NCBI GenBank assembly: GCA_030390025.1
Contig: CM059432.1
Coordinates: forward strand, 42,658,001 to 42,722,000
Source: Squalus acanthias
Lineage: Eukaryota
DNA: 64,000 bases
Direction of reading: 5' to 3'
Each line of letters begins with the position of its first letter. Position 1 is the first letter of the stretch. This document shows, in pieces, positions 1 through 55,946 of this stretch. The notes below the pieces were generated by a model that did not search any database, was not told where the DNA came from, and worked only from the letters and a program-made list of their open reading frames with translations. The position numbers were made by a program, and so were the translations under genes.

Positions 1-2138
1 AATGCTGCCTTGATGTCAAGGGCAGTCGTTTTCACCTCACCTCTGGAATTCAGCTCTTTTGTCCATGTTTGGAGCAAGGCTGTAATGAAGTCTGGAGCTG
101 AGTGGTCCTAGCGGAACGCAAACTGAGCATCGATGAGCAGGTTATTGGTGAGTAAGTGCCGCTTGATAGCACTGTCGACGACACCTTCCATCACTTTGCT
201 GATAATTGAGAGTAGACTGATGGGGCGGTAATTGGCCGGAGTGTGTTTATCCTGTTTTTTGTGGACAGGACATACCTGGGCGGTTTTTCACATTGTCGGA
301 TAGATGCCAGTGTTATAGCTGTACTGGAACAGCTTGGCTAGAGGCGCGGCTAGTTCTGGAGCACAAGTCTTCAGCACGACAGGCGGAATGTTGTCAGGGC
401 CCATAGCCTTTGCTCTATCCAGTGCACTCAGCCATTTCTTGATATCACGTGGAGTGAATCGAATTAGCTGAAGATTGGCTTCTGTGATGGTGGGGACCTC
501 AGGAGGAGGTCGAGATGGATCATCCACTTGGCACTTCTGGCTGAAGATGGTTGCAAACGCTTCAGTCTTGCCTTTTGTACTTGTATGCTGGGCTCCGCCA
601 TCATTGAGGTTGGGATGTTCATGGAGCCTCTTCCTCCTGTTAGTTGTTTAATTGTCCACCACCATTCACGACGGATGTGGCAGGAATGCAGAGCTTTGAT
701 CTGATCTGTTGGTTGTGACATCGCTTAGCTCTGTCTATAGCATGTTGCTTCCGCTGTTTAGCATGCATGTAGTCCTGTGTTGCAGCTTCTCCAAGTTGGC
801 ACCTCATTTTAGGCACACTTGGTGCTGCTCCTTCTACACTCCTTATTGAACCAGTGTTGGTCCCCTGGTTTGATGGTAATGGTAGAGTGAGGGATATGCC
901 GGGCCATGAGGTTACAGATTGTGGTGGAATATAATTCTGCTGCTGCTGATGGCCCACAGCGCCTCATTGATGCCCAGTTTTGAACTGCTAGATCTGTTCT
1001 GAATCTATCCCATTTAGCACAGTGGTAGTGCCACACAACACGATGGAGGGTGTCCTCCGTGTGAAGACAGGATTTCGTCTCCACAAGGCTTGTGCGGTGG
1101 TCACTGCTACCAATACTGTCATGGACAGATGCATCTGCCACGGAGATTGGTGAGGACGAGGTCAAGTAAGTTTTTCCCTCATGTTGGCTCTCTCACCACC
1201 TGCCGCAGGCCCAGACTGGCAGCTATGTCCTTCAGGACTCGGCCAGCTCGGTCAGTTGTGGTGCTACCGAAGCACTCTTAGTGATGGACATTGAAGTCCC
1301 CCACCCACAGTACATTCTGTGCCCTTGCTACCGTCAGTGCTTCTTAACATGGAGGAGTACTGATTCATCAGCTGAGGGACGGCGGTAGGTAGTCATCAGC
1401 AGGAGGTTTTCTTGCCCATGCTTGATCTGAAACCATGAGACTTCATGAGGTCCGGAGTCAATGTTGAGGACACCCAGGGCCACTCCTTCCCGACTGTATA
1501 CCACTGTGCCGCCACCTCTGGTGGGTCTGTCCTGCTGGTGGGACAGGACATACCCAGGGATGGTGATGGAGGATTCTGGGACGTTGGCTGAAAGGTGTGA
1601 TTCTGTGAGTATGACTATGTCAGGCTGTTGCTTGACTGGTCTGTGGGACAGCTCTCCCAATTTTGGCACAAGTCCCCAGATGTTAGTGAGGAGGGCTTTG
1701 CAGAGTCTACTGGGCTGCATGTGCCTTTGTCATGTCCGTAGCCAGTGCCTAGGTCGATGCCGGCTGGCCGGCCGGTTTTTATATAATTATTGTTTTTCGT
1801 AGCGGTTTGGTACAACTGAGTGGCTGGCTAGGCCTTTTCAGAGGGCAAATCAGAGTCAACCACATTGCTGTGGCTCTGGAGTCACATATATCTCAGACCA
1901 GGTAAGTACGGCAGATTTCCTTCCCTAAAGGACATTAGTGAAGCAGATGGGTTTTTACGACAATCCAGTAGTTTCATGGTTACCATTACTGATACTAGCT
2001 TTTTATTCCAGACTTACTTAATTAACATAATTTAAATTCCACAGCTACCGTGGTGGGCTTTGAACTCACATCTCCAGATCATTAGTCCAGGCCTCTGGAC
2101 TACTTGGCCAGTAACATAACCACTATGTTACTGTACCC
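1..2138 (-). mobile_element. Family B LINE (ORF1-less CR1-group), 5'-complete copy running off the window start; decayed APE endonuclease and start of RT
   Basis: Minus-strand ORF fragments TNIWGLVPKLGEL..PDIVILTESHL, SSDHR and KAMGPDNIP..LKTCAPELAAPL. A ~420-bp 5' UTR begins with a tRNA-like head (A box 2120-2130, B box 2055-2067). Inserted into a Harbinger Myb gene. Confidence 0.88.
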
Positions 2139-4318
2139 TGGAGTGTAGCCCCAAGGACCTGGATGCAGTGCCTTAGGAAGTTTAATGACCTCACACGAGT
2201 GGTCAAGGTCAGTGAATGCATCTTCAAATGGCATATCCTACCAGCTGCACCACTAGCCTCAGCCACTGCTCAAATCACCACACCCCCATTACTCACCTAC
2301 CAACAATCTCTATCAGTCATGACTCATACCTAACATGCATATGCTTCACCTCACCCTCACACACTCAGCACTGTTGCAAGCCTCACACCCACATCCCCCA
2401 GCTTGAACACACTGCCAGCTATTTCACCACATCACCCAAACATATTGCACGACACTCACTCTCACTATTCCCTCTCTCTTGCAGGACACGGTGGCATAAA
2501 ACTGGAGGCAGCAGGAACTAACCGGAGGGGGAGAGGTGCGTCTGCATGCTCTAACCCCCATGGAGGAGATGGTGCTGGCCATTGAAGGGCCATTGCTGAG
2601 GCCATAGCCAGCTGCGGGCCTGAATCCATTGATGATGACGGTATCCTCATACCTAATCCTCCTTCTCATACCCCCTTCCCGCTCATCCCACAATCTCTTC
2701 TGACTTACAAGCTGCAGATGGTATAAGCATGCACCCCTCACCACAACCTTACCCTTGTGACTTTTTCCTTTCAGATACACAAGAGGTGCAGCCTACCCAG
2801 GTAGTGGACAGAGAGCAAGAAGAGAGTGATAATGAAGACACACCGTCACTTGATTTCACACTCGCAGCCCCAGCTCAGATACTGACACTGCTCGTATCTT
2901 AGAGTATAGCATAGAGGGATCTGCACGTGGTGAGACACCGGACACAAGTGCGCTGCAGCCAGAGCAAGGGGCAAGGATAATGCAGGTGCCAGCTCGTTGG
3001 ACTCAGATGAGGACTTTGATGGGGCAGGCTACAAAAAAAGGCTGATGGGTGTACACAACAAAATGCTGGGTGCATTAGGAAGCCTGCCAGAAAGCCTGCG
3101 TTCAATGCCAAGGAGCATGGAGGAGTACAGCTCCAACTTGGCACAGGGCTTTACGCAGAGCTTGGAGCCCACCTTTCTTGCATGGAACTGGTGGCCAACT
3201 CCATCAACACACTTGTGAACCCAACCATGATGCAGCGTCTGATGGCCGATGTCTCGGCTTCCATTGCAGCACAAGCAGCTTCCACCAAAAGTCTGAGTGC
3301 TGCCGTGGAAGCTCAGACTGCTGCCATGCAAGGTCAGACTGCTGCCACCATGGCTGTGGATACCAGTGTTCAAAGGGGATTGCAGGGTGTCACAGCAGTC
3401 CAGCAATGTGTCTTCCAACAGAATACTAGGATTATTCTGGCACCGCCCCGGGGGAATGGCAGTGGCTCCATGGAGCACGAGCCTGCTGTCCTCTCTCAGA
3501 ATGAAAGCATTCGTGCTCCCACCCCTGCAACTCCTCCAGTGCCCTTGTTGTTGCCTGTCTGCCAGTCAGCTCAGACTGCTGCCGCCTATGCCAAGGTAGT
3601 TCAGTCTGAAGCTGAGTCTTCTAGGCCCAGAGCAGCTTGAGGTCATTCTGCAAGGCCATCTGCAGTCTCTTTCACTGAAAGTCAGCAACCTTCCACCAGC
3701 CATGCTGCTGCCACTGGGGTAGCACTGCATAGGAGGACTGGCAAAGGCACATGGAAGACGGGCACTAAGGAAGTGTACAAAGATGATTAGTTTAAAGTTT
3801 GTATGCAATATGGCATGATTTCATTGATAAATTTGGTTTGGAATGTTTATTTTGTGTTGGCTTTTATTTTTGCATTGTGGCCAAGAGAACGATGTAATGG
3901 TCAGTGACAGAGAGAAGGTAAGGAGTGTGGGACTGTTGGTGAATGGGGAATTGGGGTTGAGGTTACTGGTATCTCATTTGAATTAGTTCTTCATATACAT
4001 CCCGGGCAGAAAGAGGCTGTCTAGGTTTCTGCCTCGTCCTCTTCCATGTCCTCCTCTTCCTCCTCGTGCTCCTGCTCCTCAGCTTGTCGCCTGATAGATG
4101 GTGGCAAGGGCTGTCCCCTCATGATGGCAAGGTTGTGCAGCATACCGTCACGAATCTTGAGACCTGCTCAGTTGAGTACTGCAGGGCTCCTCTACAGCAG
4201 TCCAAGCTGCGGAATCATTGTGCGCATTGTGCGCAGGTGCCTCGGACGCCATTATAGGTCTCTCACGGCACTTATAGTGCCCAATAAAACGAGCGCTACC
4301 AAGCCCAATTTCTCGCCC
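2139..4318. mobile_element. PIF/Harbinger DNA transposon relic: spliced Myb/SANT gene (+) and convergent transposase C-terminus (-)
   Basis: + strand: PRTWMQCLRKFNDLTRVVK|gt (donor 2208), exon 2485-2640 with ..ELTGGG..LTPMEEMVLAI, and a last exon from 2775. - strand 3965-4147: GMLHNLAIMRGQPLP plus an acidic run, typical of a HARBI1-like C-terminus. Right end aatttctcgccc is followed by TAA. Confidence 0.8.
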
Positions 4319-11589: not shown

Positions 11590-13290
11590 TTCAAATGGAC
11601 AATCAACCAACAAAACCCTGCATTTATATAGTGCCTTTAGCATAGGAAAACATCCTAAAGTGCTTTTAAAGAGGTGTAGAGGGAATGGAAACCGAGCATG
11701 TTTTAAGAAATCAATTAAGGGTATTGACTGAAGAAACAATAGAAGAGGTAGGCTTTGAGGAGTTTTTTGAAAATAGGAGGAGGTGTAGAAAAGCAGAGGG
11801 GATTAAGAAAATAATTGAGTGTGTGAGACTAAAGGCTGTGCCACTGATAGGCCAGAGCAAGGAGTGGATGCACAGTAATCGAGAGATGGAAGAGTGCAGG
11901 GTTGGAGGAGACTCCAGAGATGAGATGGAACAAGACTATGCAGGGATTACAAATGAGAAAAAGGATTTTGAAATTGATGTATGGTAGCATAGTGGTTATG
12001 TTACTGGACTAGTAATCCAGCGGCCTGGACTAATGATCCAGGAGACGGGAGTTCAAATGCTTCACAGCAGCAATCTGGAATAAAAAGGTAATATTATTAA
12101 TGGTGACCATGAACCTACCGGATTGTCGTAAAAACCCATCTGGTTCACTAATGTCCTTCAGGGAAGGAAATCTGCCATCCTTACCCGGTCTGGCCTACAT
12201 GAGACTCCAGGTCCACAACAATGTGGTTGACTCTTAACTGCTCACTGAAATGGCCTAGTAAGCCAATCAGTTGTATCAAAACTGCTACGAAAAGCTATAA
12301 TAAAAGTAAAATTGGACAGACCACCAGGCAGGTACCCAGGTAACATTCGCTCCACACAAGTGCCAGGCAATGACCAGCCCCAACAAGGAAAAGCCTAACC
12401 AACTCCCCTTGTCATTCAATGGCATTATCATCGCCTAAACTCCCACCACCAACACCTTGGGGGGTCACCATTGACCAGAAACTCAACTGGACTAACACTG
12501 TGGCTACAAGAGCAGGTCAGAGGCTGGGTATTCTGTGGCCAGTTTCTCACCACCTGACTCCCCAAAGCCGTTCTACCACCTACAAGGCACAAGTCAGGAG
12601 TGTGATGGAATACACTCCACTTGCCTGGATGAGTGCAGCTCCAACAACACTCAAGAAGCTTGATACCATCCAGGACAAAGCAGCCCGCTTGATTGGCACC
12701 CCATCCATCACCTTAAACATTCACTCCCTCTACCACCGGCGCAGTGTATGCCATCTACAAGATGCATTGCAGCAGCTCGCCAAGGCTTCGTCGACAGCGC
12801 CTCCCAAACCTGCGACCTCTACCACCTAGAAGGACAAGGGCAGCAAGCACATGAGGACACCACCACCTCCAAGTCACACACCATCCTGACTTGGAAATAT
12901 ATCGCCGTTCCTTCATTGTTGCTGGGTCAGAATCCTGGATCTCCCTCCCTAACAGCACTGTGGGAGTACCTTCACCACACAGACTGCAGCAGTTGAAGAC
13001 GGCAGCTCACCACCACCTTCTCAAGGGCAATTAGGGATGGGCAATAGATGTCCACATCCCGTGAATGAATAAAAAAAAATGTGCTGGGGGACAAGGAACA
13101 AGGAGTGGTCGATGCCAAGGGTGAGACTGATAGATATGTGGAACTTGGTTCAGGCATGATGTGGGTGGAAGAGCTCTGAGTAAATTGGAGTTTATGGCGC
13201 GTAGGAGACCAGCAGGAAAGTACTAGCAAGGTCAAGCCTCAAAGTCTTGAAGTGTGGATGACCGTTTGTTGGCAATTGGGATGAGGTAAG
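11590..13290 (-). mobile_element. Old L2-type LINE 3' fragment interrupted by a family B derivative
   Basis: L2-type tail tgcatttatatagtgcctttagc at ~11620; purine-rich antisense RT-like sequence on both sides of the 11983-13079 insertion. Confidence 0.5.
11983..13079 (+). mobile_element. Non-autonomous bipartite derivative of the family B LINE (tRNA-like head and 5' UTR fused to RT C-terminus and 3' tail)
   Basis: A box TAGCATAGTGG at 11985-11995, B box GTTCAAATG at 12051. 11983-12330 aligns with the reverse complement of 1760-2135. After ~12341 it is the RT C-terminus (GVTIDQKLNW..KAQVRSVMEY), ending atgaatAAAAAAAAA. Confidence 0.88.
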
Positions 13291-14700: not shown

Positions 14701-14960
14701 GGAGATGCCGGTGTTGGACTGGGGTGGACAAAAGTGAGAAGTTGCACAACACCAGGTTATAGTCCAACAGCTTTATTTGAAATCACAAGCTTTCGGAGCG
14801 CTGCTCCTTCGTCAGGTGAAGTGAAGAAATACAAATGGGCATATATGCTGTGACTATATGCATCTCTTCACTTCACCTGACGAAGGAGCAGCGCTCCGAA
14901 AGCTTGTGATTTCAAATAAAGCTGTTGGACTATAACCTGGTGTTGTGCGACTTCTCACTA
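14701..14960. mobile_element. Penelope-like element remnant: inverted pLTR pair with 14-bp TSD
   Basis: 95-bp inverted arms at 14733-14827 and 14865-14959 (1 mismatch), a 32-bp extension at 14701-14732, and TSD atgatatattttgt at 14687-14700 and 14961-14974. Confidence 0.8.
14872..14910 (+). ncRNA. Minimal type I hammerhead ribozyme motif (mirror copy on - strand at ~14782-14820)
   Basis: tcac-CTGACGA-a-GGAGC agc GCTCC-GAAA-GC-TT-gtga: conserved core boxes, stem II hairpin, stem I tcac/gtga and a palindromic AGCT stem III, as in Penelope-associated minimal hammerheads. Confidence 0.7.
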
Positions 14961-15329: not shown

Positions 15330-16492
15330 AGAAAAAGAAAGAACTTGCATTTATAAAGCGCATTTCATGACCTCGGGCCATCCCAAAACGCTTTTAAAAA
15401 AAAAAAAAAAATTGTTTATGGGATGTGGGCGTCGCTGGCAAGGCCAGTATTTATTGCCCATCCCTAATTGCCTTTGAGAAGGTAACGGTGAGCTGCCTTC
15501 TTGAACCGCTGCAATCCGTGTGGTGAAGGTACTCCCACAGTGCTGTTAGGTAGGGAGTACCAGGATTTTGACCCAACGACGATGAAGGATCGGCGATATA
15601 CTTCTAAGTCAGGATGGTGTGTGACTTGGAGGGGAACTTGGATGTGGTGGTGTTTCTATGTGCCTGCTGCCCGTGTCCTTCTAGGTGGAAGAGGTTGCGG
15701 GTTTGGGAAGTGCTGCCGAAGAAGCCTTGGCGAGTTGCTGCAGTGCATCTTGTAGATGGTACACACTGCAGCCACGGTATGCCGGTGGTGGAGGGAGTGA
15801 ATGGCTAAGGTGGTGGATGGGGTGCCAATCAAGTGGGCTGCTTTGTCCTGGATGGTGTCGAATTCTGAGTGTTGTTGGAGCTGCACTCATCCAGGCAATT
15901 GGAGAGTATTCCATCACACTCCTTACTTGTGCCTTGTAGATGGTGGAAAGGCTTTGGGGAGTCAGGAGATGAGACACTCGCCGCAGAATACCTAGCCTCT
16001 GACCTGCTCTTGTTGCCACTGTATTTATGTGGCTGGTCCAGTTAAGTTTCTGGTCAATGCTGACCCCCAGGATGTTGACGGTGGGGGATTCGGCGATGGT
16101 AATGCCGTTGAATGTCAAGGGGCGGTGGTTAGGATCTCGCTTGTTGGAGCTAGTCATTGCCTGGCACTTTTGTGGCGCGAATGTTACCTGCCACTTATCA
16201 GCCCAAGCCTGAACGTCGTCCAGGTCATTGAAGTGCTTTTATAGTTTAGTCACTATTGTAAGGTATGGAAACGTGGCAGCAAATTTATGCAGAGCAAGGT
16301 CCCACAAACAGCAATGAGATAAGGACCAGATAATCTGTTTTTTAGTGATGTTGGTTGATGGATAAATATTGGCCAGGACTCCCCTGCTCTTCTTCGAACA
16401 GTGCCATCCATCTGAGCGGGCAGAGAGGTTTGACATCTCCTCTTAAAAAAAAACAGCACCTCCAAGAATGCAGCACTCCCTCATTACTACAT
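15330..16492 (-). mobile_element. Deu-domain SINE (SacSINE1/AmnSINE-like) split by a family B LINE 3' fragment at 15396-16226
   Basis: SINE 3' end at 15330-15395 (cttgcatttataaagcgc) and body at 16227-16492 (gtcccacaaacagcaatg, aatattggccaggac, gcagcactccctc). The intervening segment encodes the family B RT C-terminus on the - strand. Confidence 0.75.
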
Positions 16493-27083: not shown

Positions 27084-29796
27084 ATTGTCTATGATGAGGT
27101 GAATCGAGCATAGGCTAATAAAAGATAGATTAGTCTGAATTTGGAGAAAAAAAGGCTAAGCAATTCATGCTTTGCTTTTATGTAAAAATAGAAAATATTA
27201 AGGGTTATATCCAAAACGTTAATCAATCCTTCTGACTCTTCTTGACATGCTGGGCCTCAACAAACCTTGACTCTTGGATTGTGGATTCTTCCCCCTTACT
27301 GTGGCTACTCCAGATGGCTATACCTTCTACCATATCTCTTGCCCTCTCCGTTGTAATGGTTACATGGCTCTCATTGCCAGTTGCCGTCTCACAGTCTTCA
27401 GGTTTTTAAAACCCGAAGTATCACCTTGTCTCTATCTTTTCCCTATTTTTTTTTAACTCCTTTCAACCTTGGTGGTGTCCTGTACTACAAACCTGGTGTT
27501 TCACCTTGGTTTTTCAATTTAAAAGATACCATTATTATTTTAGATTTCCTGGATTTGTGGGCTTTTTTACTTGTGCTTTGATTTGATATTTGTTTTACTG
27601 TCTTTTTTTTGTGTGAATCATTGTCTTTTTTTGGTTAAAGGTCCTCCTTAATTCTCAAGATCCTACCAGCCAGTATCTAATCCAAAATCACAGACATATT
27701 AGGTAAACATTTAGGGCCATCAGATGATTGTGATAAATCATATCTTTTTCTTCATTTCAGACTGTCTTCTCTATAACCCTCTTGTCTTTGGGGGTTCTGT
27801 CAGCTGAATGGTTTGGGCTCTGTTTCTATGGCAACAGCAAACTATTAAAAATAAGTTTCATCATTTTTATTATGCCATTAGTTTCAGAAAGGATAAGTTA
27901 AACTATTCAAGTTGCAATACTGAAAGAAAGCTGTCCATTCAGGAACACTACTGCTATTCTCTACTTCTCTCCCATATGCAATTTCTTTGAAAATCATTTA
28001 AAAAAAAATAGCAAATGTAATTAATAGATTTGTATAAGTTTTTTTTAAATTAAAAGCATCCATTAGGAAAATATTTGTACATTGTTCATAGAGGCATATA
28101 AAGTTTAATTCATATTCTATATGAAAACATTTCAAAATTAATTTATGATACCCTTCGGTGTATTATATCAATATTCAGGCATAATGTGCATAGAACTTAT
28201 AAGTGAATGGTTGCATATTATTTCTTGATAAACCTGAAATAATGATGCAACAAGAGTTAATCCATACTGATGCTGAATATTGGTGTCTGCATTGACAGCC
28301 ACTGCTGATACAAAAACTGTCCGAAACAGAATAACACTCCTGTTTACATTGGAAATCAAATATAAAATAAACTACGACGGGTCCACATATATGGTAGATA
28401 TAAATTGGGAAGTGACTGCTTAAAAAATCTCATCAGTCTGTGAAACAAATTCTACTGTCACTTGACAAATCAAATAATTTGATCCCTACTGTCTATCATG
28501 GAATGCCCACTGAAAAAAAACACAGAACAATAATCCTGTAAAGATAAAATGGTAAGAAATCACTAAGACCTTGAAATGACTCTCCGATATTAATATGTTT
28601 GTATAAAATCTCTCTGCCTACCTGCTATTTAATGGAGACATTAAACACCTTTTTTAAACAACTTGCTACCTCTGTTAAAAATCAGAGGAACTTTTATTTA
28701 AATACATCAAGTTTACACTAATGTCATAATTTTAAGGCCTAACTTTCTACATAAAATGACACACTCTGGAATGTGTTCGAAACAGTAATCTCTTTCGGGG
28801 TTAAGATACTGTTAATAAATTGTTTTCAAATCCCTCCATGGCCTCGTCCCTCCCTATCTCTGTAATTTCCTTCAGCCCCACAACCCCCCGAGATATCTGC
28901 GCTCCACTAATGCTGCCCTCTTGAGCATCCCTGATTATAATCGCTCAACCATTGGTGGCCGTGCCTTCTGTTGCCTTTTTTAAAATTCGTTCATGGGATG
29001 TGGGCGTCGCTGGCAAGGCCAGTATTTATTGCCCATCCCTAATTGCCCTTTGAGAAGGTGGTGGTGAGCCGCCGCCTTGAACCGCTGTAGTCCATATGGT
29101 GAAGGCACTCCCACAGTGCTGTTAGGGAGGGAGTTCCAGGATTTTGACCCAGCGACGATGAAGGATCGGCGATATACTTCTAAGTCAGGATGGTGTGTGA
29201 CTTGGAGGGGAACTTGGAGGTGGTGGTGTTCCCATGCGCCTGCTGCCCTTGTCCTTCTAGGTGGAAGAGGTCACGGGTTTGGGAGGTGCTGCTGAAGAAG
29301 CCTTGGCAAGTTGCTGCAATGCATCTTGTAGATAGTACATACTGCAGCCACGGTACGCCGGTGGTGGAGGGAGTGAATGTTTAAGGTGGTGGATGGGGTG
29401 CCAATCAAGCGGGCTGCTTTGTCCTGGATGGTGTCGAGCTTCTTCAGTGTTGTTGGAGCTGCACTCATCCAGGCAAGTGGAGAGTATTCCATCACACTCC
29501 TTACTTGTGTCTTGTAGATAGTAGAAGGCTTTGGGGAGTCAGGAGGTGAGACACTTGACGCAGAATACCTAGCCTCAGACCTGCGCTTGTTGTCACAGTA
29601 TTTATGTGGCTGGTCCAGTTAAGTTTCTGGTCAATGGTGACCCCCCCCAGGATGTTGATGGTGGGGGATTCGGCGATGGTAATGCTGTTGAATGTCAAGG
29701 GGCGGTGGTTAGGATCTCGCTTGTTGGAGATGATCATTGCCTGGCATTTGTGTGGCGCGAATGATACCTGCCACTTATCAGCCCAAGTCTGAACGG

Positions 29797-32700
29797 TGAC
29801 GTAATAAAGACTCACTATGCACTTGAACATAAAGCAAGGCTTTAATCAACTTGTAACAAAACATGGAGGTCAAGTTAGCAGTCACTAGCTTCCTGTTTCC
29901 AGATTGTCTCTGCCCAAGGTGGGCCCATGCCTGAGTATTTATACTCCCTGGACGGCGCCCCAGCTGGCCGCCCAGTAGTACTTCCTGAGTTGTTACTTGC
30001 GATTTATGACATTCTTCCTCCCTAAAAGGTTTGGAAGTCCAGTCTTCCTTTAACGGACTAGGTGGACCAGAAATAGCCGCAGACGTTTAGCTCTCTGCTT
30101 GTGACTGGAAGGCACGTCTCCCCGGACCGTGTCCTGGTCCCTGGGTCGCTTGGCCCGTACCGGTAAGTCAGTAGAGTCCGCGTCATCTTGATCATCCTGT
30201 GGAGGACTGGGAATATCATGACTCCGGGTGCGGGTCCCCACAGGTGCTGAGCTGGCCTCATCCCGGGTCGTGGCTGGAGATTGTCCGGCGTCCTGGTTTC
30301 GGGTGGCCATCCTACGGGGAGCGTCCAGCTCCCGGAGTTGATCCGGTAGCGTTGCCGCCAGATCCCCCGATGTCCCAGGCGGGGCGTCATTTTCATAGGG
30401 GTGCGGAGTGTTGATATCATTGTCGGGGGATCCTTCATCATTCGGGCCCGTGTGACCGGTTGGGCAGGGAGCCAGATCTCGGAGCGAGACGGTGGTCTCC
30501 CGGCCATCAGGGTACCGTACGTGCGCATACGTGGGGTTTACCTCCGTTAACTCCACCTCGTCAACGAGAGGGTCGTTTTTGGCAGACCGGACGAACCTCC
30601 GGAGTAGCACCGGGCCGGGAGCCACCAACCATGACGGTAGAGACGTCCCATGTGTAGAGCGACGCCGGAATTTGAAGAATCGCTCATGAGGCGTGACATT
30701 AGTAGATGTGGAGAGAAGAGACCTGATAGAGTGTAACGCGTCGGGGAGCACCGTTTTCCACTGCTGGTCCGGCAGGTTGCGTGACCTTAGTGCCAGACGG
30801 ACAGCGTTCCAGATGATGGCATTGTATCGTTCAACCTGTCCGTTACCGATTGGGTGATATGGTGTCGTCCTACTTGAGGCGATTCCCCGTTGAGAGATAA
30901 CTTTTAAGTTCACTCGACATAAAGGAGGGACCCCGATCAGTGTGGATAAAATTGGCCGTCCCGCAAAGGGAAAAGACCTGATCGAGGCATTTAATTACCG
31001 TAGAGGTAAGCATATTAGGGCAGGGGAAGGCGAAGGGAAAGCGTGAATACTCGTCCACCATCGTAAGTAGGTAGGTGTTCCTTGTCGACGAAGGCAATGG
31101 CCCTTTAAAGTCTATGCTGAGCCTCTGCATAGGCTGCATTGCATGTATGAGTAAGCCATCTGATGGGCGAAAGAATTGTGGTTTCAGTTCTGCACAAATC
31201 CTACAGGAGGAGCATGTTTTCTTTACGTCCTCGGTTGAAAATGGTAGATTTTTGGAGCGCACAAAGTGCAACATGCGGGTCACACCAGGATGGCATAAGT
31301 CCATATGCAAATCCACCAGAGTCGACGTTGACATTGAGGAGCAAAATGCCCGTGTGAAGGTATCTGGGGCCACGTTCTGTTTGCCGGGTCGGTAACAGAT
31401 AGTATATCCAAAGGCAGCCAGCTCCATCCTCCAGAGTTGAATTTTATTATTTTTGATTTTCGTGCGCCTCCGGTTATCCAACATGAAGGCCACAGAGCGC
31501 TGGTCAGTTATAAGCGTAAAATGACGCCGAGCAAGAAAATGACCCCATTGGCGTACAGCCTCGATGATGGCCGTAGCCTCCTTCTCGACGGGGGGGTAAT
31601 GGAGCTCGCTACCCTGCAAGGTTCTGGATAGGAATGCCACGGGTCGGCCACCTTGATTCAAGGTAGCGGAGATCGCCACCTCCGATGCATCGCATTCGAC
31701 CACAAAAGGAAGATTTGTGTCAATGGAGCGAAGCGTGGCTTTCTCCAGCTGTCGTTTGAGGAGGTTGAAGGCAGAAATAGCCGTAGCTTCCAATGGAAAA
31801 GACTTCGCATGGAGCAGGGGCAGTATTTTATCGGAGAAGTGTGGTATCCATTTTGCGTAATAAGCAAACATGCCAAGTGCCCGACGAAGAGAGCCGAGGT
31901 TCGTCGGGGGAGGGAGCTCCTGAAGTGGACGAAGTCGCTCTGGGTCCGGTTTAATAACACCGTTGCCCACCCAGTAGCCAAGAATGTTCACCGATGGCAC
32001 CGACTTCACCGATTTGGATTCGTTTAACGTTAAGTGGCGACGGCGGAGTACGTCAAAAAATCTCTGAAGATTGGCGTCATGCTCCTTTTGATCATGGCCG
32101 GCAATAGTGATATTGTCTAAATACGGAAAGGTATCCGTCAAGTTCTCTTGCCAGACTAGGCCATCCATGGCCCGTTGGAAGACGGCCACCCCATTGGTGA
32201 CCCCGAATGGAAGGCGGCGAAACTGGAAAAGCCGACCATTGGCCTCAAAGGCCGTATACTTCTTGTCGGCGTCTTGCAGTGGCACCTGATGGTACGCGCT
32301 TTTTAAATCGAAGGTCGAGAATACCTTGTATTTGGCAAGGTTGTTGACCATGTCATCTATGCGTGGCAGCGGGTAGGCATCCAGATCGGTATATAGATTA
32401 ATAGTCTGCGAATAATCGATACACAGACGTTTTTTATGTTATTTTAAGGGATTCCTCACGATGACGACCTGAGCCCGCCAGGGAGATGAACATGGCTCGA
32501 TAATACCGTCGACTAAAAGGCGAGAGATTTCCGCCTCAATAAACGCTCGATCATCTTGGCTAAAGCGCCGCGATTTGGTGGCTATGGGTTTACAGCGGGG
32601 GGGAAGATTGGCAAACAGGGAGGGTTCACCGAGTAAGGCCGCCGAGAGTGCACAAAACGGCACCTTAGAAATGGTAAGCTCCGACCTTGACCCTCCAAAC

Positions 32701-34304: not shown

Positions 34305-37300
34305 AACGGCGTCCAGGTCTTGTTGCATGCGGGCATGGACTGCTTCATTATCTGAGGAGTTGTGAGTGGCACTGAACACTGTGCGGTCATCAGCGAACTT
34401 CCCCATTTCTGACCTTATGTTGGAGGGAAGATCATTGATGAAGCAGCTGAAGATGGTTGGGCCTAGGACACTGCCCTGAGTAACTCCTGCAGTGATGTCC
34501 TGGGGCTGTGATGATTGACCTTCAACCACCACAACCATCTTCCTTTGTGCTAGGTATGACTCCAGCCAGTGGAGAGTTGTCCCCCGATTCCCATTGACTT
34601 CAGTTTTGCTTGGGCTCCTTGATGCCAGACTCGGTCAAATGCTGCTTTGATGTCAAGGACAGTCACTCTCACCTCACCTCTCGAATTCAGCTCCTTTGTC
34701 CATGTTTGGACTAAGGCTGTAGTGAGGTTGGGAGCTGAGGGAACCCAAACTGGGCATCAGTGAGCAGGTTATTACCGCTTGATAGCGCTGTCGATGACAC
34801 ATTCCATCTCTTCGCTGATGATTGATAGTAGACTGATGGAGCGGTAATTGGCTGTATTGGATTTGTCCTGCTTTTTGTGGACAGGACATACCTGTGCAGT
34901 TTTCCACATTGTCGGGTAGATGCCAGTGTTGTAGCTGTACTGGAACAGCTTGGCTAGAGGCGCGGCTAGTTCTGGAGCACAAGTCTTCAGCACGACAGCC
35001 GGGATGTTGTCGGGGCTCATAGCCTTTGCTGTATCCAGTGCGCTCAGCCGTTTCTTGATATCAAATGGAGTGAATTGAATTGGCTGAAGACTGGCTTCTG
35101 TGATGGTGGGGACCTCAGGAGGAGGCCGATATGGATCATCCACTCGGCACTTCTGGCTGAAGATGGTTGCAAACGCATCAGCCTTGTCTTTTGCACTCAC
35201 GTGCTGGGCTCCACCATCACTGAGGATTGGGATATTCATGGAGCCTCCTCCTCCTGTTAGTTGTTTAATGGTCCACCACCATTGACGACTGGATGTAGCA
35301 GTACTGCAGAGCTTTGATTTGATCCATTGATTGTGGGACCTTTTAGACCGGTCTGTAGCATGCTGCTTCTGCTTTTTAGCATGCATGTAGTTCTGTGTTG
35401 CAGCTTCCCCAGGTTCGCACCTCATTTTTAGGTACGCCTGGTGCTGCTCCTGGCAGGCTCTTCTACACTCCTTATTGAACCAGGGTTGTTCCCCTGGCTT
35501 GGTGGTAATGGTAGAGTGAATGATATGCCGGGCCATGAGGTTACAGATTGTGGTGGAATACAATTCTGCTGCTGCTGATGGCCCACAGCGCCTCATGGAT
35601 GCCCAGTTTTGAGCTGCTAGATCTGTTCTGAATGTATCCCATTTAGCACGGTGGTAGTGCCACACAACACGAGGGAGGGTGTCCTCAGTGTGAAGATGGG
35701 ACTTCATCTGCACAATGACTGTGCGGTGGTCACTGCTACCAATACTGTCATGGACAGATGCATCTGCAACAGGTAGATTGGTGAGGACGAGGTCAAGTAG
35801 GTTTTTCCCTCGTGTTGGTTCTCTCGCCACCTGTCAAAACCCAGACTGGCAGCTATGTCCTTCAGGACTCGGCCAGCTCGGTCAGTAGTGGTGCTACCGA
35901 GCCACTCCTGGTGATGGACATTGAAGTTTCCCACCCGCAGTACATTCTGTGCCCTTGCTACTCTCAGTGCTTCTTCCAAGTTGTGTTCAACATTGGAGGA
36001 GTACTGATTCATCAGCTGAGGGAGGGTGGTAGGTGGTAATCAGCAGGAGGTTTCCTTGCCCATGCTTGTCCTGAAGCCATGAGACTTTATGGGGTCCAGA
36101 GTCAATGTTGAGGACTCCCAGGGCCACTCCTTCCCAACTGTATACCACTGTGTCGCCTCCCCTGGTGGGTCTATCCTGCCGGTGGGACAGGACATAACCA
36201 GGGATGGTGATGGAGGAGTTTGGGACATTGGCTGAAAGGTATGATTCTGTGAGTATGACTATGTCAGTCTGTGGGACAGCTCTCCCAATTTTGGCACAAG
36301 TCCCTAGATGTTGGTGAGGAGGGTCGACTGGGCTGGGTGTGCCGTTGTCATGTCGGTAGCTGGTGCCAAGGTTGATGACGCTTGGTCCGTCCGGTTTTTC
36401 TTATTAGTATTGTGTTTCGTAGCAGCTTCCTAGGCCATTTCAGAGGGCAGTTAGGAGTCAACCACATTGCTGTGGGTCTTAGGCCCTAAGCTCTGGAATT
36501 CCCTGCCTAAACCTCGCCGCCTCGCTACCTCTCTTTCCTCCTTTAAGACGCTCCTTAAAACCTACCTCTTTGACCAAGCTTTTGGTCACCTGCCCTAATT
36601 TCTCCTTATGTGGCTCGGTGTCAAATTATTTGTCATATAATACTGCTGTGCAGCGCCTTGGGATGTTTTACTATGTTAAAGGTGCTATATAAATACACGT
36701 TGTTGTTGTTGTTCTTGTGGTTTCTGATGCCAGTGTATCCTTCAATGTGTTACTGCCTTGTAACATACTGCAAATTGTGAGCTGCCTTGTATGTAATGCA
36801 ACATTACCTATTATAGGAAAATGTTATCCTTCAGGTCACATGCTAGAATTGGCTTCAATACCTCTTTTTATCCATTGCCAAAATACTACAAAGTCACAAT
36901 TTTCCTCAGCATATTGATGCAATGATGTCACTGCTGAAAAAACAAATTGGAAAAAAAACCAGCTAGTTTATACTATTTTTAAAATAATTGAGTTAAAGGC
37001 TGTAATTTATTTGCAGGATTTAGAGGTTAGTCAGTGTACTCTGTAACTCATTGAGGAATTGATGAATTCTAGCTACATATTCTATTCTATCTATGATGAC
37101 AACACTATAGAATACCATGAATAATGTTTGCTTTCTATTAGTTCAAGTAAAAGTTATTTTGTAGTAAATTGTTTTTTGGTGATCTGTCATAAATATCATG
37201 TGTATCATCATTTATTTAATGATTATCATGATACAGCAGAAGCCATCTGGTAATGATATGGATGTGGGGAGGTTACTGGAATCTATCATCAGACAGAGTG

Positions 37301-46397: not shown

Positions 46398-47749
46398 CTG
46401 GAGGTGCTGTCGAAGAAGCCTTGGGGAGTTGCTGCAGTGCATCTTGTAGATGGTACACACTGCAGCCACGGTACGCCGGTGTGGAGGGAGTTAATGTTTA
46501 AGGTGGTGGATGGGGTGCCAATCAAGCAGGCTGCTTTGTCTTGGATGGTGTCGAGCTTCTTGAGTGTTGTTGGAGCTGCACTCATCCGGGCAAGTGGAGA
46601 GTATTCCATCACACTCCTTACTTGTGTCTTGTAGATAGTAGAAGGCTTTGGGGAGTCAGGAGGTGAGACACTTGCCACAGAATACCTAGCCTCTGACCTG
46701 CTCTTGTTGTCACAGTATTTATGTGGCTGGTCCAGTTAAGTTTCTGGTCAATGGTGACTTCCAGGATATTCATGGTGGGGAACTCGGTCATTGTAAATGC
46801 TGTTGAATGTAAAGGAGTGGTGGTTAGACTCTCTCTTGTTGGCGATAGTCATTGTCTGGCACTTGTGTGGCACGAATGTTACTTGTCACTTATCAGCCAA
46901 AGCCTGAATGTGGTCCAGGTCTTGCTACATGTGGGCATGAACTGTTTCATTATCTGAGGAGTTGCAAATGGCACTGAACACTGTGCAGTCATCAGCGAAC
47001 ATCCCCATTTCTGGCCTTATGATGGAGGGAAGGTCATTGATGAAGTAGCGGAAGATGCTTGAGCCGAGGATACTGGGCCGTGTAGCCTATCCTGCTCATA
47101 TTTCGTGTGTCCAATTCTGTTAGGTTCAGGAGATGGTTCTGTGATAGTAGATTGGCGGTTAGGATCAGATCAGCCATGATCTTATTGAATGGCGGAGCAG
47201 GCTCGAGGTGCCAATTGGCCTACTCCTGCTCCTATTTCTTATGTTCTTATGTATGCCCTGAAGAACTCCTGCATCGATGTCCTGGGGCTGAGATGATTGG
47301 CTTCCAACAACCACAACCATCTTCCTTTGTGCTAGGTATGACTCCAGCCAGTGGAGAGTTTCTCCCTGATTCCCATTGACTTCAATTTTACTAGGGCTCC
47401 TTGATGCCACACTTGGTCAAATACTGCCTTGATGTCAAGGGCAGTCACTCTCACCTCACCTCTGGAATTCAGCTCTTTTTGTTCATGTTTGGACCAAGGC
47501 TGTAATGAGATCTGGAGCCGAGTGGTCCTTGTGGAACCCAAACTGAGCATTGGTGAGCAGGTTATTTGTGAGTAAGTGCCGCTTGATAGCACTGAAGATG
47601 ACACCTTCCATCACTTTGCTGCTGATTGAGAGTAGACTGATGGGCTGGTAATTGGCCAGATTGGATTTGTCCTGCTTTTTGTGGACAGGACATGCCTGGG
47701 CAGTTTTCCACATTGTCGGGTAGATGCCAGAGTTGTAGCTGTACTGGAA
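46398..47749 (-). mobile_element. Family B LINE RT fragment with a short CR1 3'-UTR insertion at 47076-47255
   Basis: Matches the other family B copies; the host sequence gatactg|ccctgaagaactcc rejoins across the insertion. Confidence 0.88.
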
Positions 47750-50700
47750 CAGGAACAGCCAGAAGTCATGGTCAATGTGGGAACCAATGGCATAGGTAGG
47801 AAAAGGGTTGATGTTCTGCAGTCAGAGTTTCAGGATCTAGGGAGGAAGTTAAAAAGCAGGACCTCAAAAATAGTAATCTCTGGATTACTTCCAGTGCCAC
47901 GTGCTAGTAAGTATAGGAATACTAGGATAAAACAGGTTAATGGGTTGTTGGAGACGTGGTGTGGGAAGGAGGACTTCAGATTCCTGGAGCATTGGGACCA
48001 GATCTGGGGCAGGAGGGACCTGCTCAAGATGGACAAGTTGCACCTCAACAGAGCTGGGACTAATGTCCTCACAGGGAGGTTAACTAGTGCTGTGGGGGAG
48101 GGTATAATCTAATTTGACAGGGGGATGGGCATCAGGATGAAACATTTGAGAGGAGAAACAAGGTACGCAGAGGACTGGCAGACACGAATAGCACTGGAGT
48201 AAAGAATAGTTCAGAAATAGGTGGGATCAAAAAGTGGGCAAATATGAGGCAGTGTAAGATGGTTTTGGAGTTCATATGCGTAAATGCACGTAGCCTGGTA
48301 AACAAGGTTGGTGAGCTGCAGGCACAAGTCATGACATGGGACTACGATATAGTGGCAATAACAGAGACCTGGCTCAAAGAAGGGGAGGATTGGGAACTTA
48401 ATATTCCTGACTACAAGATATTCAGGAAAGGTAGGGGAGGAAAAAGAGGAAGGGTAGCAGTATTGATCAAAGAAACTATTATAGCACTGAAAAGGGATGA
48501 TGTAGTTGAGGAGTCAAAGACAGAATCTATTTGCTTAGAATTAAGGCACAATAGAGGAGCTATTGCTTTACTAGGTGTATACGATAGGCCACCAAATAGT
48601 GGGAAGGAGATAGAGGAGCAAATTACAGAAAGATGCAAGTACTACAGAGTAGTGATAGTAGGGGACTTCAATTATCCTAATATAGACTAGGGTAGCAACA
48701 GGGTAAAGAGGGGGACGAATTCCTGAAATGTGTACAAAAGAACTTTCTTGATCAATGTGTTTCCAGCCCAACAAGGAAGGAAGCAGGGTTGGATCTAGTT
48801 CTGGGGAATGAAGTGGGGCAAGTGTAGCATGTTTTAGTCGGGTAGTATTTGGGGAACAGTGATCATAATATCATCAGGTTTAGAATAGTTATGGAAAAGG
48901 AACAATCAAGTGTAAAAATACATAACTGGAGGAGAGCTAATTTCAATTTAAAAAGGGATCTCGCCCAGGTGGATTGGAATCAAAATTTGGTAGGCAAAAC
49001 AGTAATGAAACAATGGGAGGCCTTCAAAGAGGAGATGGTTTGAGTAGACACATTCTCACGAAGGGGGAAAGGAAGTATAACCAAAGCTAGAGTTCCTTGG
49101 ATGACTAAAGATATAGAGATTAAAATGAAACAGAAAAAGGAGGCTTATGACCAATGTACGGTTGATAATACAGTAGAGAACCAAAATGAATACAGAAAGT
49201 ACAGAGGAGATTTAAAAAAGGGAGTAAGATGGGAAAAGAGGGAGTATGAGAATAGATTAGCGGCGAACATAAAAGGGAACCCAAAAGTCTTTTATAAACA
49301 TAAATAATAAAAGGGTAGTCAAAGGAAGGGAGGGGTCAATTAGGAACCACAAAGGAGATCTTACGGATGCAGAAGGCATGGCTGAGGTACTAATTGAGTT
49401 CTTTGCATCTGTCTTCACTAGAGAAGAGGATGCTGCCAACATAGCAGTAAAGTAGGAGGCAGGAGCGATATTGGATAGGATAAAAATAGGTAAAGAGGAG
49501 GTACTTAAAAGCTTGGCAATACTCAAAGTAGAAAAGTTATCCGGTCCGGTTGGGATGCATCCTAGGTTACTGAGGGATGTAAGGGTGGAAATTATGGAGG
49601 CTCTGGCCACAATCTTCCAATCCTCCTTAGATAGTGGGGTGGTGCCAGAGGACTGGAGGATTGCAAATGTTACACCCCTGTTAAAAGGGAAGAAGGATAA
49701 ACTTGGCAACTACAGGCCAGTCCGTGGTGGGGAAACTTTTGGAAACATTAATGCGGGACAAAATGAATTGGCATTTGGAAAAGTTTGGGCTAATAACTGA
49801 AAGTCAGCACGAATTTGTTAAAGGAAAATCGTGTTTGACTAACCTGATTGAGTTCTTTGATGAAGTAATGGAGAGAGTTGATGAGGGTAGTGCGATTGAT
49901 GTTGCGCATATGGACTTTCAAAAGGCATTTGACAAAGTACCACATAATAGACTTGTAAGCAAAATTAAAGCCCTTGGGATTAAAGGGACCGTGGCAGCGT
50001 AGATACAAAATTATCTAAGGGACAGAAAGCAGAGAGTAGCGGTGAACAGGCGCTTTTCAGACTGGAGGGAAGTATACAGTAGTGTTCCCCAGGGGTCAGT
50101 ATTAGGACCACTGCTCTTTTTGATCTATATTAATGACCTGGACTTGAGTACACTGGCCATAATTTCAAAGTTTACATATGACGCAAAACTCAGAAATGTA
50201 GTAAACAATGAGAATAGTAACAGACTTCAGGTGGACATAGACAGACTGGAGAAATGGACAGATACAAGGCAGATGAAATTTAATGCATGGAAGTGGGAAG
50301 TGATACATTTTAGTAGGAAGAATGAGGAGAGGCAATATAAACTAAACGGCACCATTTTTAAATGGGTGCAGGAACAGAGAGACCTGTTTTTTTTTATTCA
50401 TTCATGGGATGTGGGCGTCACTGGCAAGGCCAGCATTTATTGCTCATCCCTTGTTGCCCTTGAGAAGGTGGTGGTGAGCCGCCGCCTTGAACCACTGCAG
50501 TCTGTGTGGTGAGGGTACTCCCACAGTGCTGTAAGGTAGGGAGTTCCAGAATTTTGACCCAGTGACGATAAAAGAATGGTGATATACCTCCAAGTCAGGA
50601 TGGTGTGTGACTTGGAGGGTAACTTGGAGGTGGTGGTGTTCCCATGCGCCTGCTGTCCTTGTCCTTCTAGGTGGTAGAGGTCGCAGGTTTGGGAGGTGCT

Positions 50701-51780
50701 GCTGAAGAAGCCTTGGTGAGTTGCTGCTGTGCATCTTGTGGATGGTACACACTGCAGCCACGGTACGCCAGTGGTGGAGGGAGTGAATGTTTAAGGTGGT
50801 GGATGGGGTGCCAATCAAGCGGGCTGCTTTGTCCTGGATGGTGTCGAGCTTCTTGAGTGTTGTTGGAGCTGCACTCATCCAGGCAAGTGGAGAGTATTCC
50901 ATCACACTCCTTACTTGTGCCTTGTAGATGGTGGAAAGGCTTTGGGGAGTCAGGAGGTGAGACACTCGCCGCAGAATACCCAGCCTCTGACCTGCTCTTG
51001 TTGTAACAGTATTTATGTGGCTGGCCCAGTTAAGTTTCTGGTCAATGGTGACCCCTAGGATGTTGATGGTGGGGGATTCGGTGATGGTAATGCCGTTGAA
51101 TGTCAAGGGGCAGTGGTTAGACTCTCGCTTGTTGGAGATAGTCATTGCCTGGCACTTGTGTGGCGTGAATGTGACCTGCCACTTATCAGCGCAAGCCTGG
51201 ATGTCGTCCAGGTCTTGTTGCATGCGGGCATAGACTGCTTCATTATCTGAGGAGTTGCGAATGGCACTGAACATTGTGCAGTCATCAGCGAACATCCCCA
51301 TTTCTGACCTTATGATGAAGGGAAGGTCATTGATGAAGCAGCTGAAGATGGTTGGGCCTAGGACACTGCCCTGAGGAACTCCTGCAGCGATGTCCTGGGG
51401 ATGAGATGATTGATCTCAAACCACCACAAATCTTTGAAAGTGGCAGGAAAAGTTGAGAAGGCTGCTAAAAGAGCATATGGGATCATTGGCTTTATTAATA
51501 GAGGCATAGAGTACAAAAGCAAGGGCGCTGTGCTAAACCTTTATAAAACACTGGTTAGGCCTTAGCTGGAGTATTGTGTTCATTCCTGAGTGCCACACTT
51601 TAGGAAAATTGTCAAGGCCTTAGAGAGGGTGCAGAAGAGATTTACTAGAAAGGTATAAGGAATGAGGGACTTCAGTTATGTTGAGAGACTGGAGAAGCTG
51701 GGGTTGTTATTTAATCAGAGAAGGTTAAGAGGAGATTTGGTAGAGGGGTCAGTAACCAGAGAATGTAGATTTTAGGTGAT
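47750..51780 (+). mobile_element. CR1 family A LINE with ORF1 SGNH-esterase part and disabled ORF2, interrupted by family B at 50387-51430
   Basis: ORF1 VNVGTN..IVISGLLP..DKLHLN; ORF2 EN (CVNARSL, AITETWL) and RT motifs; resumes at ~51430. Confidence 0.9.
50387..51430 (-). mobile_element. Family B LINE 3' part
   Basis: 285-aa ORF at 50444-51301 (MFADDCT..) and an oligo(A) tail at 50387-50396. Confidence 0.9.
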
Positions 51781-54263: not shown

Positions 54264-55524
54264 ATTTTTTTAAAATTCGTTCCTGGGATATGGGCGTCGC
54301 TGGCAAGGCCAGCATTTATTGCCCATCCCTAATTGCCCTTGAGAAGGTGGAGGTGAGCCGCCACCTTGAACCGCTGCAGTCCTTGTGAAGGTACTCGCAC
54401 AGTGCTGTTAGGAGGGAGTTCTATGATTTTAACCCAGCGACGATGAAGGAACGACGATCCTTTGATCTGATCCGTTGATTGTGGGATCGCTTCGCTCTGT
54501 CTATAGCATGCTGCTTTTGCTATTTAGCATGCATGTGTTGCAGCTTCCCCAGGTTGGCATCTCATTTTTAGGTACGCTTGGTGCTGCTCCTGGCATGCTC
54601 TTCTGCACTCCTCATTGAACCAGGGTTGGTCCCCTGGCTTGATGGTAATGATCGAGTGAGGGATATGCCAGGCCTTGAGGTTACAGATTGTGGTGGTATA
54701 CAATTCTGCTGCTGCTGATGGCCCTCAGCGCCTCATGGATGCCCAGTTTTGAGTTGCTAGATCTGTTCTGAATCTATCCCATTTAGCACAGTGGTAGTGC
54801 CACACAACACTTTGGAGGGTGTCCTCATTGTGAAGAGGGGACTTTGTCTCCACAAGGTCTGTGCGGTGGTCATTGCTACAAATACTGTCATGGACAGATG
54901 CATCTGAGGTAGATTGGTGAGGATGAGGTCAAGTAGGTTTTTCCCTCGTGTTAGTTCTCTCACCACCTGCCGCAGGCCCAGTCTGGCAGCTGTTTCCTTC
55001 AGGACTAAGCCAGCCCGGTCAGTAGTGGTGCTATTGAGCCACTCCTGGTGATGGACATTGAAGTCCCCCACCCAGAGTACATTCTGTGCCCTTGCTACTC
55101 TCAGTGCTTCTTCCAAGTGGTGTTCAACATGGAGGAGTACTGATTCATCAGCTGAGGGAGGGTGGTAATCAGCAGGAGGTTTCTTTGCCCATGCTTGATC
55201 TGAAACCATGAGACTTCATGGGGTCCGGAGTCAATGTTGAGGACACCCAGGGCCACTCCCTCCCGACTGTATACCACTGTGCCGCCACCTCTGGTGGGTC
55301 TGTCCTGCTGGTGGGACAGGACATACCCAGGGATGGTGATGGAAGAGTTTGGGACATTGGCTGAAAGGTATGATTCTGTGTGAAGATCTGACTATGCCAG
55401 GCTGTTACTTGACTAGTCTGTGGGACAGCTCTCCCAATTTTGGCACAAGTCCCCAGATGTTAGTGAGGAGGATTTTGCAGGGTTGACTGGGCTGGGTGTG
55501 ATGTTGTCGTGTCCGAAGCCGGTG
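54264..55524 (-). mobile_element. Family B LINE with internal deletion of RT (EN region joined to the 3' tail), inside an older antisense CR1 relic (~54185-55945)
   Basis: 3' tail at 54264-54458 abuts the EN/linker region from ~54460; EN motif WVGDFNVHHQEWL. Confidence 0.85.
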
Positions 55525-55946
55525 CCTCTGCTTTGCTTTTTCCCCATAGCCCTGTATTTTCCTCTACTTCAAATATTTATCCACTTTTCCCTTAAAAGAT
55601 GCAAGGGTCTCTGCCTCAACTACTCTCTGGCAAAGCATTCCATGCTCTGACAACCTACTTTGTAAAATTTCTCCTAACCTCTCTCCTTACTCTCAGTGAC
55701 AATTTTAAATTGATGACCCCCTCATCATTGACACCTCACCCAGAGGAAATACTTTGTTCCTATTCACCTAATCAGAACTTTTCCATAATTTTAAAAGCAT
55801 CTATTAAATCTCCTCCTAGCCTGCACTGCTCCAGGGGAAATGGTCGCAATATCCCAAATCTATTGTTATAATTGCTCAACCCCGTTATCATTCTGGTGAA
55901 CCTACGCTGTATGTTCTCTATGGCTTTAATGTTATTTCTGTGATGT

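Follow-up and report, generated by a model that had tools for sequence, protein, structure and literature searches.

To our knowledge, RNA polymerase III (Pol III) is not thought to make protein-coding RNA. The divide between LINEs and SINEs rests on polymerase and coding capacity, since LINEs are coding Pol II transcripts and SINEs non-coding Pol III transcripts; in one treatment, 'SINEs cannot encode a protein' (PMC5786205). The element described here, family B, resembles the Zenon or CR1-Zenon LINEs (Zenon-1_Hmel, SIDE Persaeus; PMC6740152) in its length of about 3.3 kb, a single EN+RT ORF, the absence of ORF1, a poly(A) tail and internally deleted derivatives. As published, however, Zenon-1_Hmel has an AUG and many sense T4 runs, and Persaeus, a Zenon derivative, is described without tRNA homology or a Pol III promoter, unlike the SINEs of family B (PMC6740152). 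RTE-1_DAn and related elements (Repbase; Kojima, 2018, PMC5786205) are, like family B, LINEs with a tRNA-like sequence matching many SINE2 heads, but they belong to the RTE clade and are treated in that paper, one sentence of which served for the comparison, as a nuisance match; our full-text literature search found the name RTE-1_DAn in PMC5786205 only. The T+ SINEs B2, Dip and Ves (PMC8466645; PMC12358842) share with family B a tRNA head with A and B boxes, an AATAAA, a T run or its rudiment and an A tail, and their Pol III RNAs gain poly(A), through CPSF according to PMC12358842. They are, however, 150-400 nt long, non-coding and non-autonomous as described, whereas family B carries a selected 973-codon ORF between head and tail.

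The SINE derivatives of family B have described counterparts as well. The bipartite-LINE SINEs Bov-tA, SINE2-1_ACar and WALLSI2 (PMC5786205) likewise consist of a head, a LINE 5' part and a LINE 3' end, but in that account the deletion came first and the tRNA head later, the parent LINE being headless. The family B parent LINE carries the head itself, so that one deletion yields a SINE. SacSINE1 and the CmiSINEs of cartilaginous fishes (PMC5499810) are tRNA-headed, of similar size and from the same animal group, but their description gives them Deu or CORE bodies and L2 tails. In the full-text literature searched, which leaves out subscription journals, Repbase Reports and Dfam, we found no description of a Pol III-driven autonomous LINE or of family B, which may already bear a name elsewhere.

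The window analysed here is a 64,000-nucleotide stretch of Squalus acanthias DNA, in which family B makes up 11 BLAST pieces with a total of 10,440 nt (Table 1). Its minus strand from 2138 to 1 is confirmed as the 5' two-thirds of a decayed 3.3-kb single-ORF (APE+RT) LINE of this family; the remaining 1.1 kb, up to an AATAAA and A tail, lies beyond the window start and was found on L070. This copy is dead, with stops and frameshifts, and deviates by 6.7% from the commonest letter of the family alignment. The endonuclease follows the head, as the preliminary description of this DNA had stated, with the motif LLTNIWGL starting near 1693, which sets the distance at about 445 nt instead of the roughly 420 it had given. 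The same UTR is indeed joined to the ORF elsewhere, in the copy beginning at 36479 (UTR columns 261-390 plus ORF).

Table 1. Family B features in the window (columns refer to the family alignment).
Feature	Position	Strand	Basis or remark
tRNA-derived head; family 5' end at G2138	2045..2138	-	sequence; conservation step at +1; Rfam match on sister L249
A box, TAACATAGTGG in window copy; element positions 9-19	2120..2130	-	sequence
B box within T-arm loop, GAGTTCAAAGCC in window copy	2056..2067	-	sequence; pattern in 19/20 full copies
Anticodon stem-loop, tandem duplicate	2074..2111	-	two 17-nt arms, 2111-2095 and 2090-2074
5' body, non-coding, element positions ~95-327	1811..2044	-	kept whole in SINE derivatives
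Remnant of single APE-endonuclease + RT ORF	1..1810	-	stops/frameshifts in window copy
Sister copy with internal deletion	11984..13050	+	columns 8-381 (head, body) fused to columns 2521-3265 (3' part); head at 79% identity
5'-truncated sister	34305..36479	-	columns 261-2499, body joined to ORF; private T4 at 35836-35839
3' sister fragment with RT	50401..51429	-	private T4 at 50570-50573
Sister fragments	54278..55526	-	columns 390-1471 and 3123-3300; T4-free
3' sister fragment	15414..16226	-	T4-free
3' sister fragment	28988..29795	-	T4-free
Sister fragments, parted by another insertion	46400..47752	-	columns 1835-2332 and 2331-3007; T4-free

The tRNA-like head with A and B boxes that had been noted at the start of the window copy is borne out. 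The element begins at G2138 and has GAGTTCAAA at 2067-2059 on the minus strand; the A box reads TAGCATAGTGG in most family B copies. On the better-kept sister L249, the Rfam tRNA model RF00005 matches over model positions 7-64 with 24.0 bits (E 0.011), and the alignment contains an insertion of 21-22 nt in the variable loop, which is the duplicated anticodon arm and lengthens the A-B spacing by about 21 nt. The D, anticodon and T arms can be made out, whereas no acceptor stem can be recognised. At E<=10, Rfam found no tRNA or ribozyme in the window copy head, ARAGORN called no tRNA in the window, and its scattered low-grade calls at a relaxed score in the metagenome loci were disregarded. The head folds no better than shuffled sequences (z -0.4 to 0.1). 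Family B therefore has the tRNA-related 5' head with A and B boxes of a SINE2 element, though its 24 bits stay below the Rfam gathering score of 29; only the derivatives of about 400 bp, and not the LINE, are short, non-coding and non-autonomous as SINE2 elements are. While the B-box pattern is present in nearly all of the 20 full copies, the strict A-box pattern is found in 12, and the A-box variant TAAC (G>A, position 11) is common to five of them. A subfamily was thus amplified despite a non-consensus A box, which counts against a Pol III reading.

The head-plus-ORF query of the 3.7-Gb genome gave 9,782 candidates, 40 of which were scored. From 39 fetched loci and the window copy, 20 colinear full-length copies were chosen by eye, the other 20 being truncated or interrupted. 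The full copies measure 3.17-3.65 kb, share 3,302 core columns and differ on average by 4.9% from the commonest letter; being descendants of a single lineage, all copies count as one observation. Their 5' boundary is sharp: across 90 anchored loci out of 95 head loci the commonest base accounts for 28-47% at positions -39 to 0 and for 74-100% at +1 to +23 (one column 50%), and 78 of the 90 start with GGG(A/T). When copies were picked by the ORF (n=32), 12 reached within 50 nt of this start and 20 ended at scattered points (116-1229); their upstream flanks had no colinear sequence in common and revealed no second 5' end. The one fixed 5' end across full and ORF-picked copies rules out, as had been argued from the window, that the head is a chance SINE neighbour, and an ORF1 upstream of the head is ruled out by the full-length copies and the ORF-picked flanks, none having been found in any copy examined. 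We conclude that the evidence supports the tRNA-type head as the true 5' end of an autonomous family, an architecture that is real, family-wide and unusual.

Contigs of four runs from four other organisms span the whole element at >=85% identity, with a summed depth above 11,000 in the element and below 20 upstream of the start, and also show SINE-type joints; these runs are guessed to be RNA and were used only for presence in other organisms. At three loci (L155, L157 and L233) the first ~20 nt are repeated immediately before the start, a pattern that template jumping by the RT at the 5' end of the RNA would be expected to leave. Neither the 20 full nor the 20 short copies examined showed regular target-site duplications. 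The search for an older independent LINE subfamily yielded no second lineage for comparison, since divergent pieces gave 69-77% matches only and the top matches of an old-type copy were mainline copies; relatives in viral contigs were not found.

In one frame no stop is shared over 973 codons (columns 330-3248), and in the sister ORFs L293 and L294 Pfam identifies Exo_endo_phos_2 (PF14529) and RVT_1 (PF00078). Variants common to at least four of the 20 copies comprise 43 synonymous and 25 non-synonymous changes and no stops, against 356, 909 and 57, respectively, among private variants, which implies that the headed lineages were autonomous and their ORF under purifying selection. An APE+RT ORF, selection on it, a 3' A tail and 5'-truncated copies are what autonomous APE-type LINEs have, and all are present here.

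The RT phylogeny that the preliminary description had proposed assigns family B to a clade of 25 members that includes lepidopteran proteins (bootstrap 98) and is separate from the vertebrate CR1 of the window, family A, so that an assignment to vertebrate CR1 was rejected; the tree holds 35 sequences chosen from 128, with vertebrate CR1 as sole outgroup and no L2 or Jockey references. Within the clade, family B forms a subclade with elements of amphioxus and unnamed marine ones (bootstrap 97), at an identity of 33-40%, and close protein matches come from Heptranchias (69-87%) and Mobula (76%). The RT appears to group with Zenon elements, a label that rests on a match by eye between the lepidopteran clade member P0060 and the published Zenon-1_Hmel over a 22-residue motif. 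Family B has the single ORF, the ~3.3 kb and the poly(A) of CR1-Zenon but, in place of a 5' UTR without Pol III promoter and an AUG start, a tRNA head and no shared in-frame AUG. A 'CR1-Zenon like LINE' has been reported for the whale shark (10.1101/443036). The absence of ORF1 is described as normal in Zenon-type LINEs (PMC6740152); as a clade trait it has no bearing on Pol III. Bacterial symbiont MAG assemblies were found to contain dozens of animal LINE ORFs (L345-L380 and others), which represent host contamination in GTDB representatives.

The T-run content of the family was, together with the head, what had first suggested a Pol III unit. As had been counted by eye, the window copy has no sense TTTT in 2138 bases, there are just two internal T4 in all family B pieces of the window, and the family A CR1 is rich in them (4.64 T4/kb in its ORFs). 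The frequent AAAA of the window copy was also confirmed (15 A4 runs), but its abundance is predicted by codon content (O/E 1.10) and was rejected as a signal. The 20 full copies contain 14 internal T4 runs in all, none of them in more than two copies, and 11 to 23 A4 runs each; despite their age, 11 are T4-free. Using the sub-optimal terminator classes given in PMC3141230, no T3VT2/T2VT3 or T3VT/TVT3 site is common to at least four of the 20 copies. As would be expected of a Pol III unit, the family thus inherited no internal run of four or more T and no sub-optimal terminator, save one weak T2CT2. At a T content of 19.7%, shared TTT windows number seven, compared with 67 AAA, 61 CCC and 49 GGG.

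How far this exceeds composition depends on the run length considered. Against base shuffling, which predicts about five T4, their absence from the window copy has p~0.01, but synonymous-codon shuffling (p~0.09) and a first-order Markov model (p~0.12) give weaker values. Copy by copy, synonymous shuffling yields p 0.03-0.46 for T4 and p<=0.05 for T>=3 in 17 of 20, and the Markov null, with p 0.05-0.68 for T4 across copies, explains much of the T4 absence. Pooled in-frame segments have 0.10 T4/kb versus 0.81 under synonymous shuffling, the copies not being independent, while the T4 O/E of the CR1 and Gypsy ORFs of the window is 1.18 and 1.04. The codon-preserving comparison that had been proposed was made on six natural ORFs, 2.2-2.5 kb long, and held constant the protein, the codon pool and the CpG context. 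T4 alone did not stand out (0 vs 1.1-1.9 expected, p 0.11-0.27), but T>=3 runs were about halved (4-7 vs 8.7-11.8 expected, p 0.002-0.022 in 6/6). A4, C4 and G4 counts in family B ORFs agree with the synonymous-shuffle expectation, and since the T>=3 deficit persists with CpG context fixed, CpG decay was dismissed as its whole cause. Among 112 related LINE ORFs from metagenome and MAG contigs the T>=3 O/E has a median of 1.01 and a minimum of 0.81, and the family B ratio is lower than in any of them. Of 111 related LINEs, none had a T4-free ORF and none showed an A/B-box pattern upstream of it, the upstream DNA being short for many. Shared new T's arose at 0 of 238 run-making sites versus 18 of 2313 sites, which is not significant (~2 expected). 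The avoidance of T runs is therefore real and T-specific, on one lineage; the absence of T4 alone would not carry the claim.

A single relative tempers this result. L343, a host-contaminant MAG contig of 3.1 kb, holds an intact in-clade LINE ORF (953 aa) that is T-poor like family B, whereas most other control LINEs are T-richer (0.22-0.37), and it is the only T-poor in-clade relative with DNA. Its T|T codon-junction ratio of 0.47, the lowest among the controls, falls within the family B range (0.40-0.73), and it has one T4 versus 2.6-3.9 expected. It also has T5/T6 in the 3' UTR, and only 33 nt precede the ORF, the 5' end being missing. L343 avoids T in part although it does not look like a Pol III unit, so some of the bias may belong to the clade.

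The start of translation is unusual. Past the upstream stop, the first shared in-frame ATG is at column 1188 (codon ~287), beyond the endonuclease, so that a non-canonical start is needed. Six shared ATGs precede the ORF in that frame, and two positions of another frame have one each. ATG303 lies in the ORF frame in a strong context and is followed in most copies by TAG and TAA, each before CAA, a context that favours stop read-through; a frame of 76 codons, which opens at ATG274 and ends with a stop at 502, overlaps. One or the other of the two stops within columns 303-330 (window ~1836-1810) is missing in single copies. The 5' body of the family contains short upstream AUG frames and two AATAAA, and for a Pol II mRNA it would be awkward to have, as this family does, three shared AATAAA within its first 360 nt. 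The RNAs of R2 and RTE elements are translated cap-independently. In family B the 5' body folded no better than shuffles, and no IRES-like structure emerged from the alifold of 12 LINE and 11 older SINE bodies, which gave -3.6 kcal/mol, was matched by 5 of 60 column shuffles and had a single compensatory pair. No covariation supported a loop-downstream pseudoknot at the ORF start in 91 copies. An apparent reading-frame signal in indels after the upstream stop (79/91 multiples of three, one class) was rejected, as an AAT triplet repeat explains it.

At the 3' end of family B an AATAAA lies about 40 nt before the junction GAA(T)n(A)n. T>=4 is present at this junction in 13 of 54 tails, compared with 3 of 76 at an internal A-run, a few tails belonging to neighbouring copies; 33 of the 54 have one or two T only, and the T runs possibly reflect post-insertion slippage. 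T+ SINE terminators are reported to shrink on copying and to regrow later (PMC8466645), and growth of T runs at A-runs is also seen in the older SINEs here. Because tail T runs can regrow after insertion, their layout is not diagnostic. The SINE derivatives, about 400 bp long, join the first ~330 to the last ~90 bases of the LINE, with the junction 327>3208 in 16 of the 20 best short matches (four share flanks, and some are segmental duplicates). The head-pattern search gave 1,380 matches, and none for the reversed control; at least 14 of 20 loci picked from them are older SINE types (67-87% identity) with other junctions, and one runs on into the endonuclease. HE1/HER1 are cartilaginous-fish tRNA-headed SINEs of similar size, and the short forms of family B may already be named in Repbase or Dfam.

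Taken together, this sequence evidence leads us to suggest, with a probability of roughly 0.6, that full-length family B RNA is made by Pol III, SINE-style, from the tRNA-derived head. The A and B boxes would be bound by TFIIIC, and Pol III would start at the +1 G and run for 3.3 kb, a run made possible by selection of active lineages against T runs. Termination is put at 75% per T4 (PMC6023835), at which rate 4.6 T4/kb, a density like that of CR1, would be a complete block to Pol III, while family B lacks such a site. Pol III would stop at a T run located at the 3' junction or past it, and the upstream AATAAA would allow the RNA to be polyadenylated in the manner of T+ SINEs. Lacking a cap, this RNA might then be translated without a canonical start, by reinitiation, a near-cognate codon or stop read-through, and the APE-RT protein would copy the RNA, promoter included, into new sites. 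That the coding RNA is a natural Pol III-made mRNA in a vertebrate seems to us slightly better than an even chance; PMC6023835 doubts, in the part relevant here, the translation of uncapped Pol III RNA. The preliminary description had proposed full-length Pol III transcription and selection against terminators. Its interpretation of the window copy is partly supported: the head as true 5' end, the lack of inherited T4 and the avoidance of T runs stand, whereas Pol III as the polymerase is probable. Neither an internal T4 in the consensus nor copies extending past the head with an ORF1, both of which it had named as contrary findings, came to light, nor did any other such finding at the sequence level.

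The competitor that fares best, though we consider it doubtful, is that template switching provided a LINE with the 5' 330 nt of a tRNA-SINE and that Pol II makes the coding RNA from a promoter in the head or body. Pol III would then serve the short SINE forms only, and T-poverty would be a trait of clade or composition. Pol II is regarded as the polymerase of LINEs and of the bipartite elements derived from them (PMC5786205), and type 3 promoters are documented to be used by both Pol II and Pol III (PMC6023835). The non-significance of T4 absence by itself and the partial T avoidance of L343, yet with T5/T6 before its tail, agree with such an origin, and Pol II, too, would be served by an AATAAA 40 nt ahead of the tail. 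The T>=3 deficit, however, lies outside the range of the 112 relatives, and no T4, T3VT or TVT3 was inherited. The one-base start has a SINE-like spacing to the A box, and the strong-context AUG at column 303, which would serve a Pol II mRNA, is closed off by two in-frame stops in most copies, at least six upstream AUGs preceding the ORF.

It is improbable that the tRNA-like fold is a processing signal at whose 5' side RNase P cuts host or read-through Pol II transcripts. Such a cut, comparable to that of the 5' ribozymes of R2/RTE elements, would leave a precise uncapped end and would account for both the one-base-precise 5' end and the missing AUG, and self-cleaving 5' ribozymes are reported from several LINE clades (PMC5786205). 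The acceptor stem is not kept, though, the Rfam match being confined to part of the model and the head folding like shuffles; no ribozyme family matched at E<=10, and the avoidance of T runs would be left unexplained. Equally slight are the prospects of a reading in which a headless master LINE elsewhere amplifies the headed form in trans as a non-autonomous SINE-LINE chimera, which would fit the missing usable AUG, the abundance of same-head SINEs with their older types and our sampling of only the top matches of each search, but which is opposed by the purifying selection on the ORF of the headed copies themselves, the lack of another 5' end in the ORF-picked set and the loss of depth at the same boundary in the four other organisms.

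If transcription by Pol III holds, a coding element run from a tRNA promoter would break the LINE/SINE rule. It would also offer a natural test of whether and how a kilobase Pol III RNA is translated, uncapped and with no AUG, as well as a one-step route from LINE to SINE and a compact self-contained module of promoter plus translation. Even if it were made by Pol II, a LINE with a SINE head as its fixed 5' end is an architecture undescribed in the literature searched.

Other elements of the window were recorded alongside family B. An open frame without Pfam match lies at 3020-3640 (+), and a further open frame at L063:2259-3422 (-) appears to resemble a Harbinger-type nuclease; the flank entered by the window copy is presumably such a DNA-transposon region. 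A Gypsy-like LTR retrotransposon at 30050-33995 (-), with long open gag-protease and RT-RNase H-integrase frames, sits between two family B pieces, and its 215-bp repeats (29797-30011 and 34090-34304) are 99% identical, which indicates a young insertion. A near-perfect inverted repeat of 227 bp (91% self-match) is found at 14733-14959.
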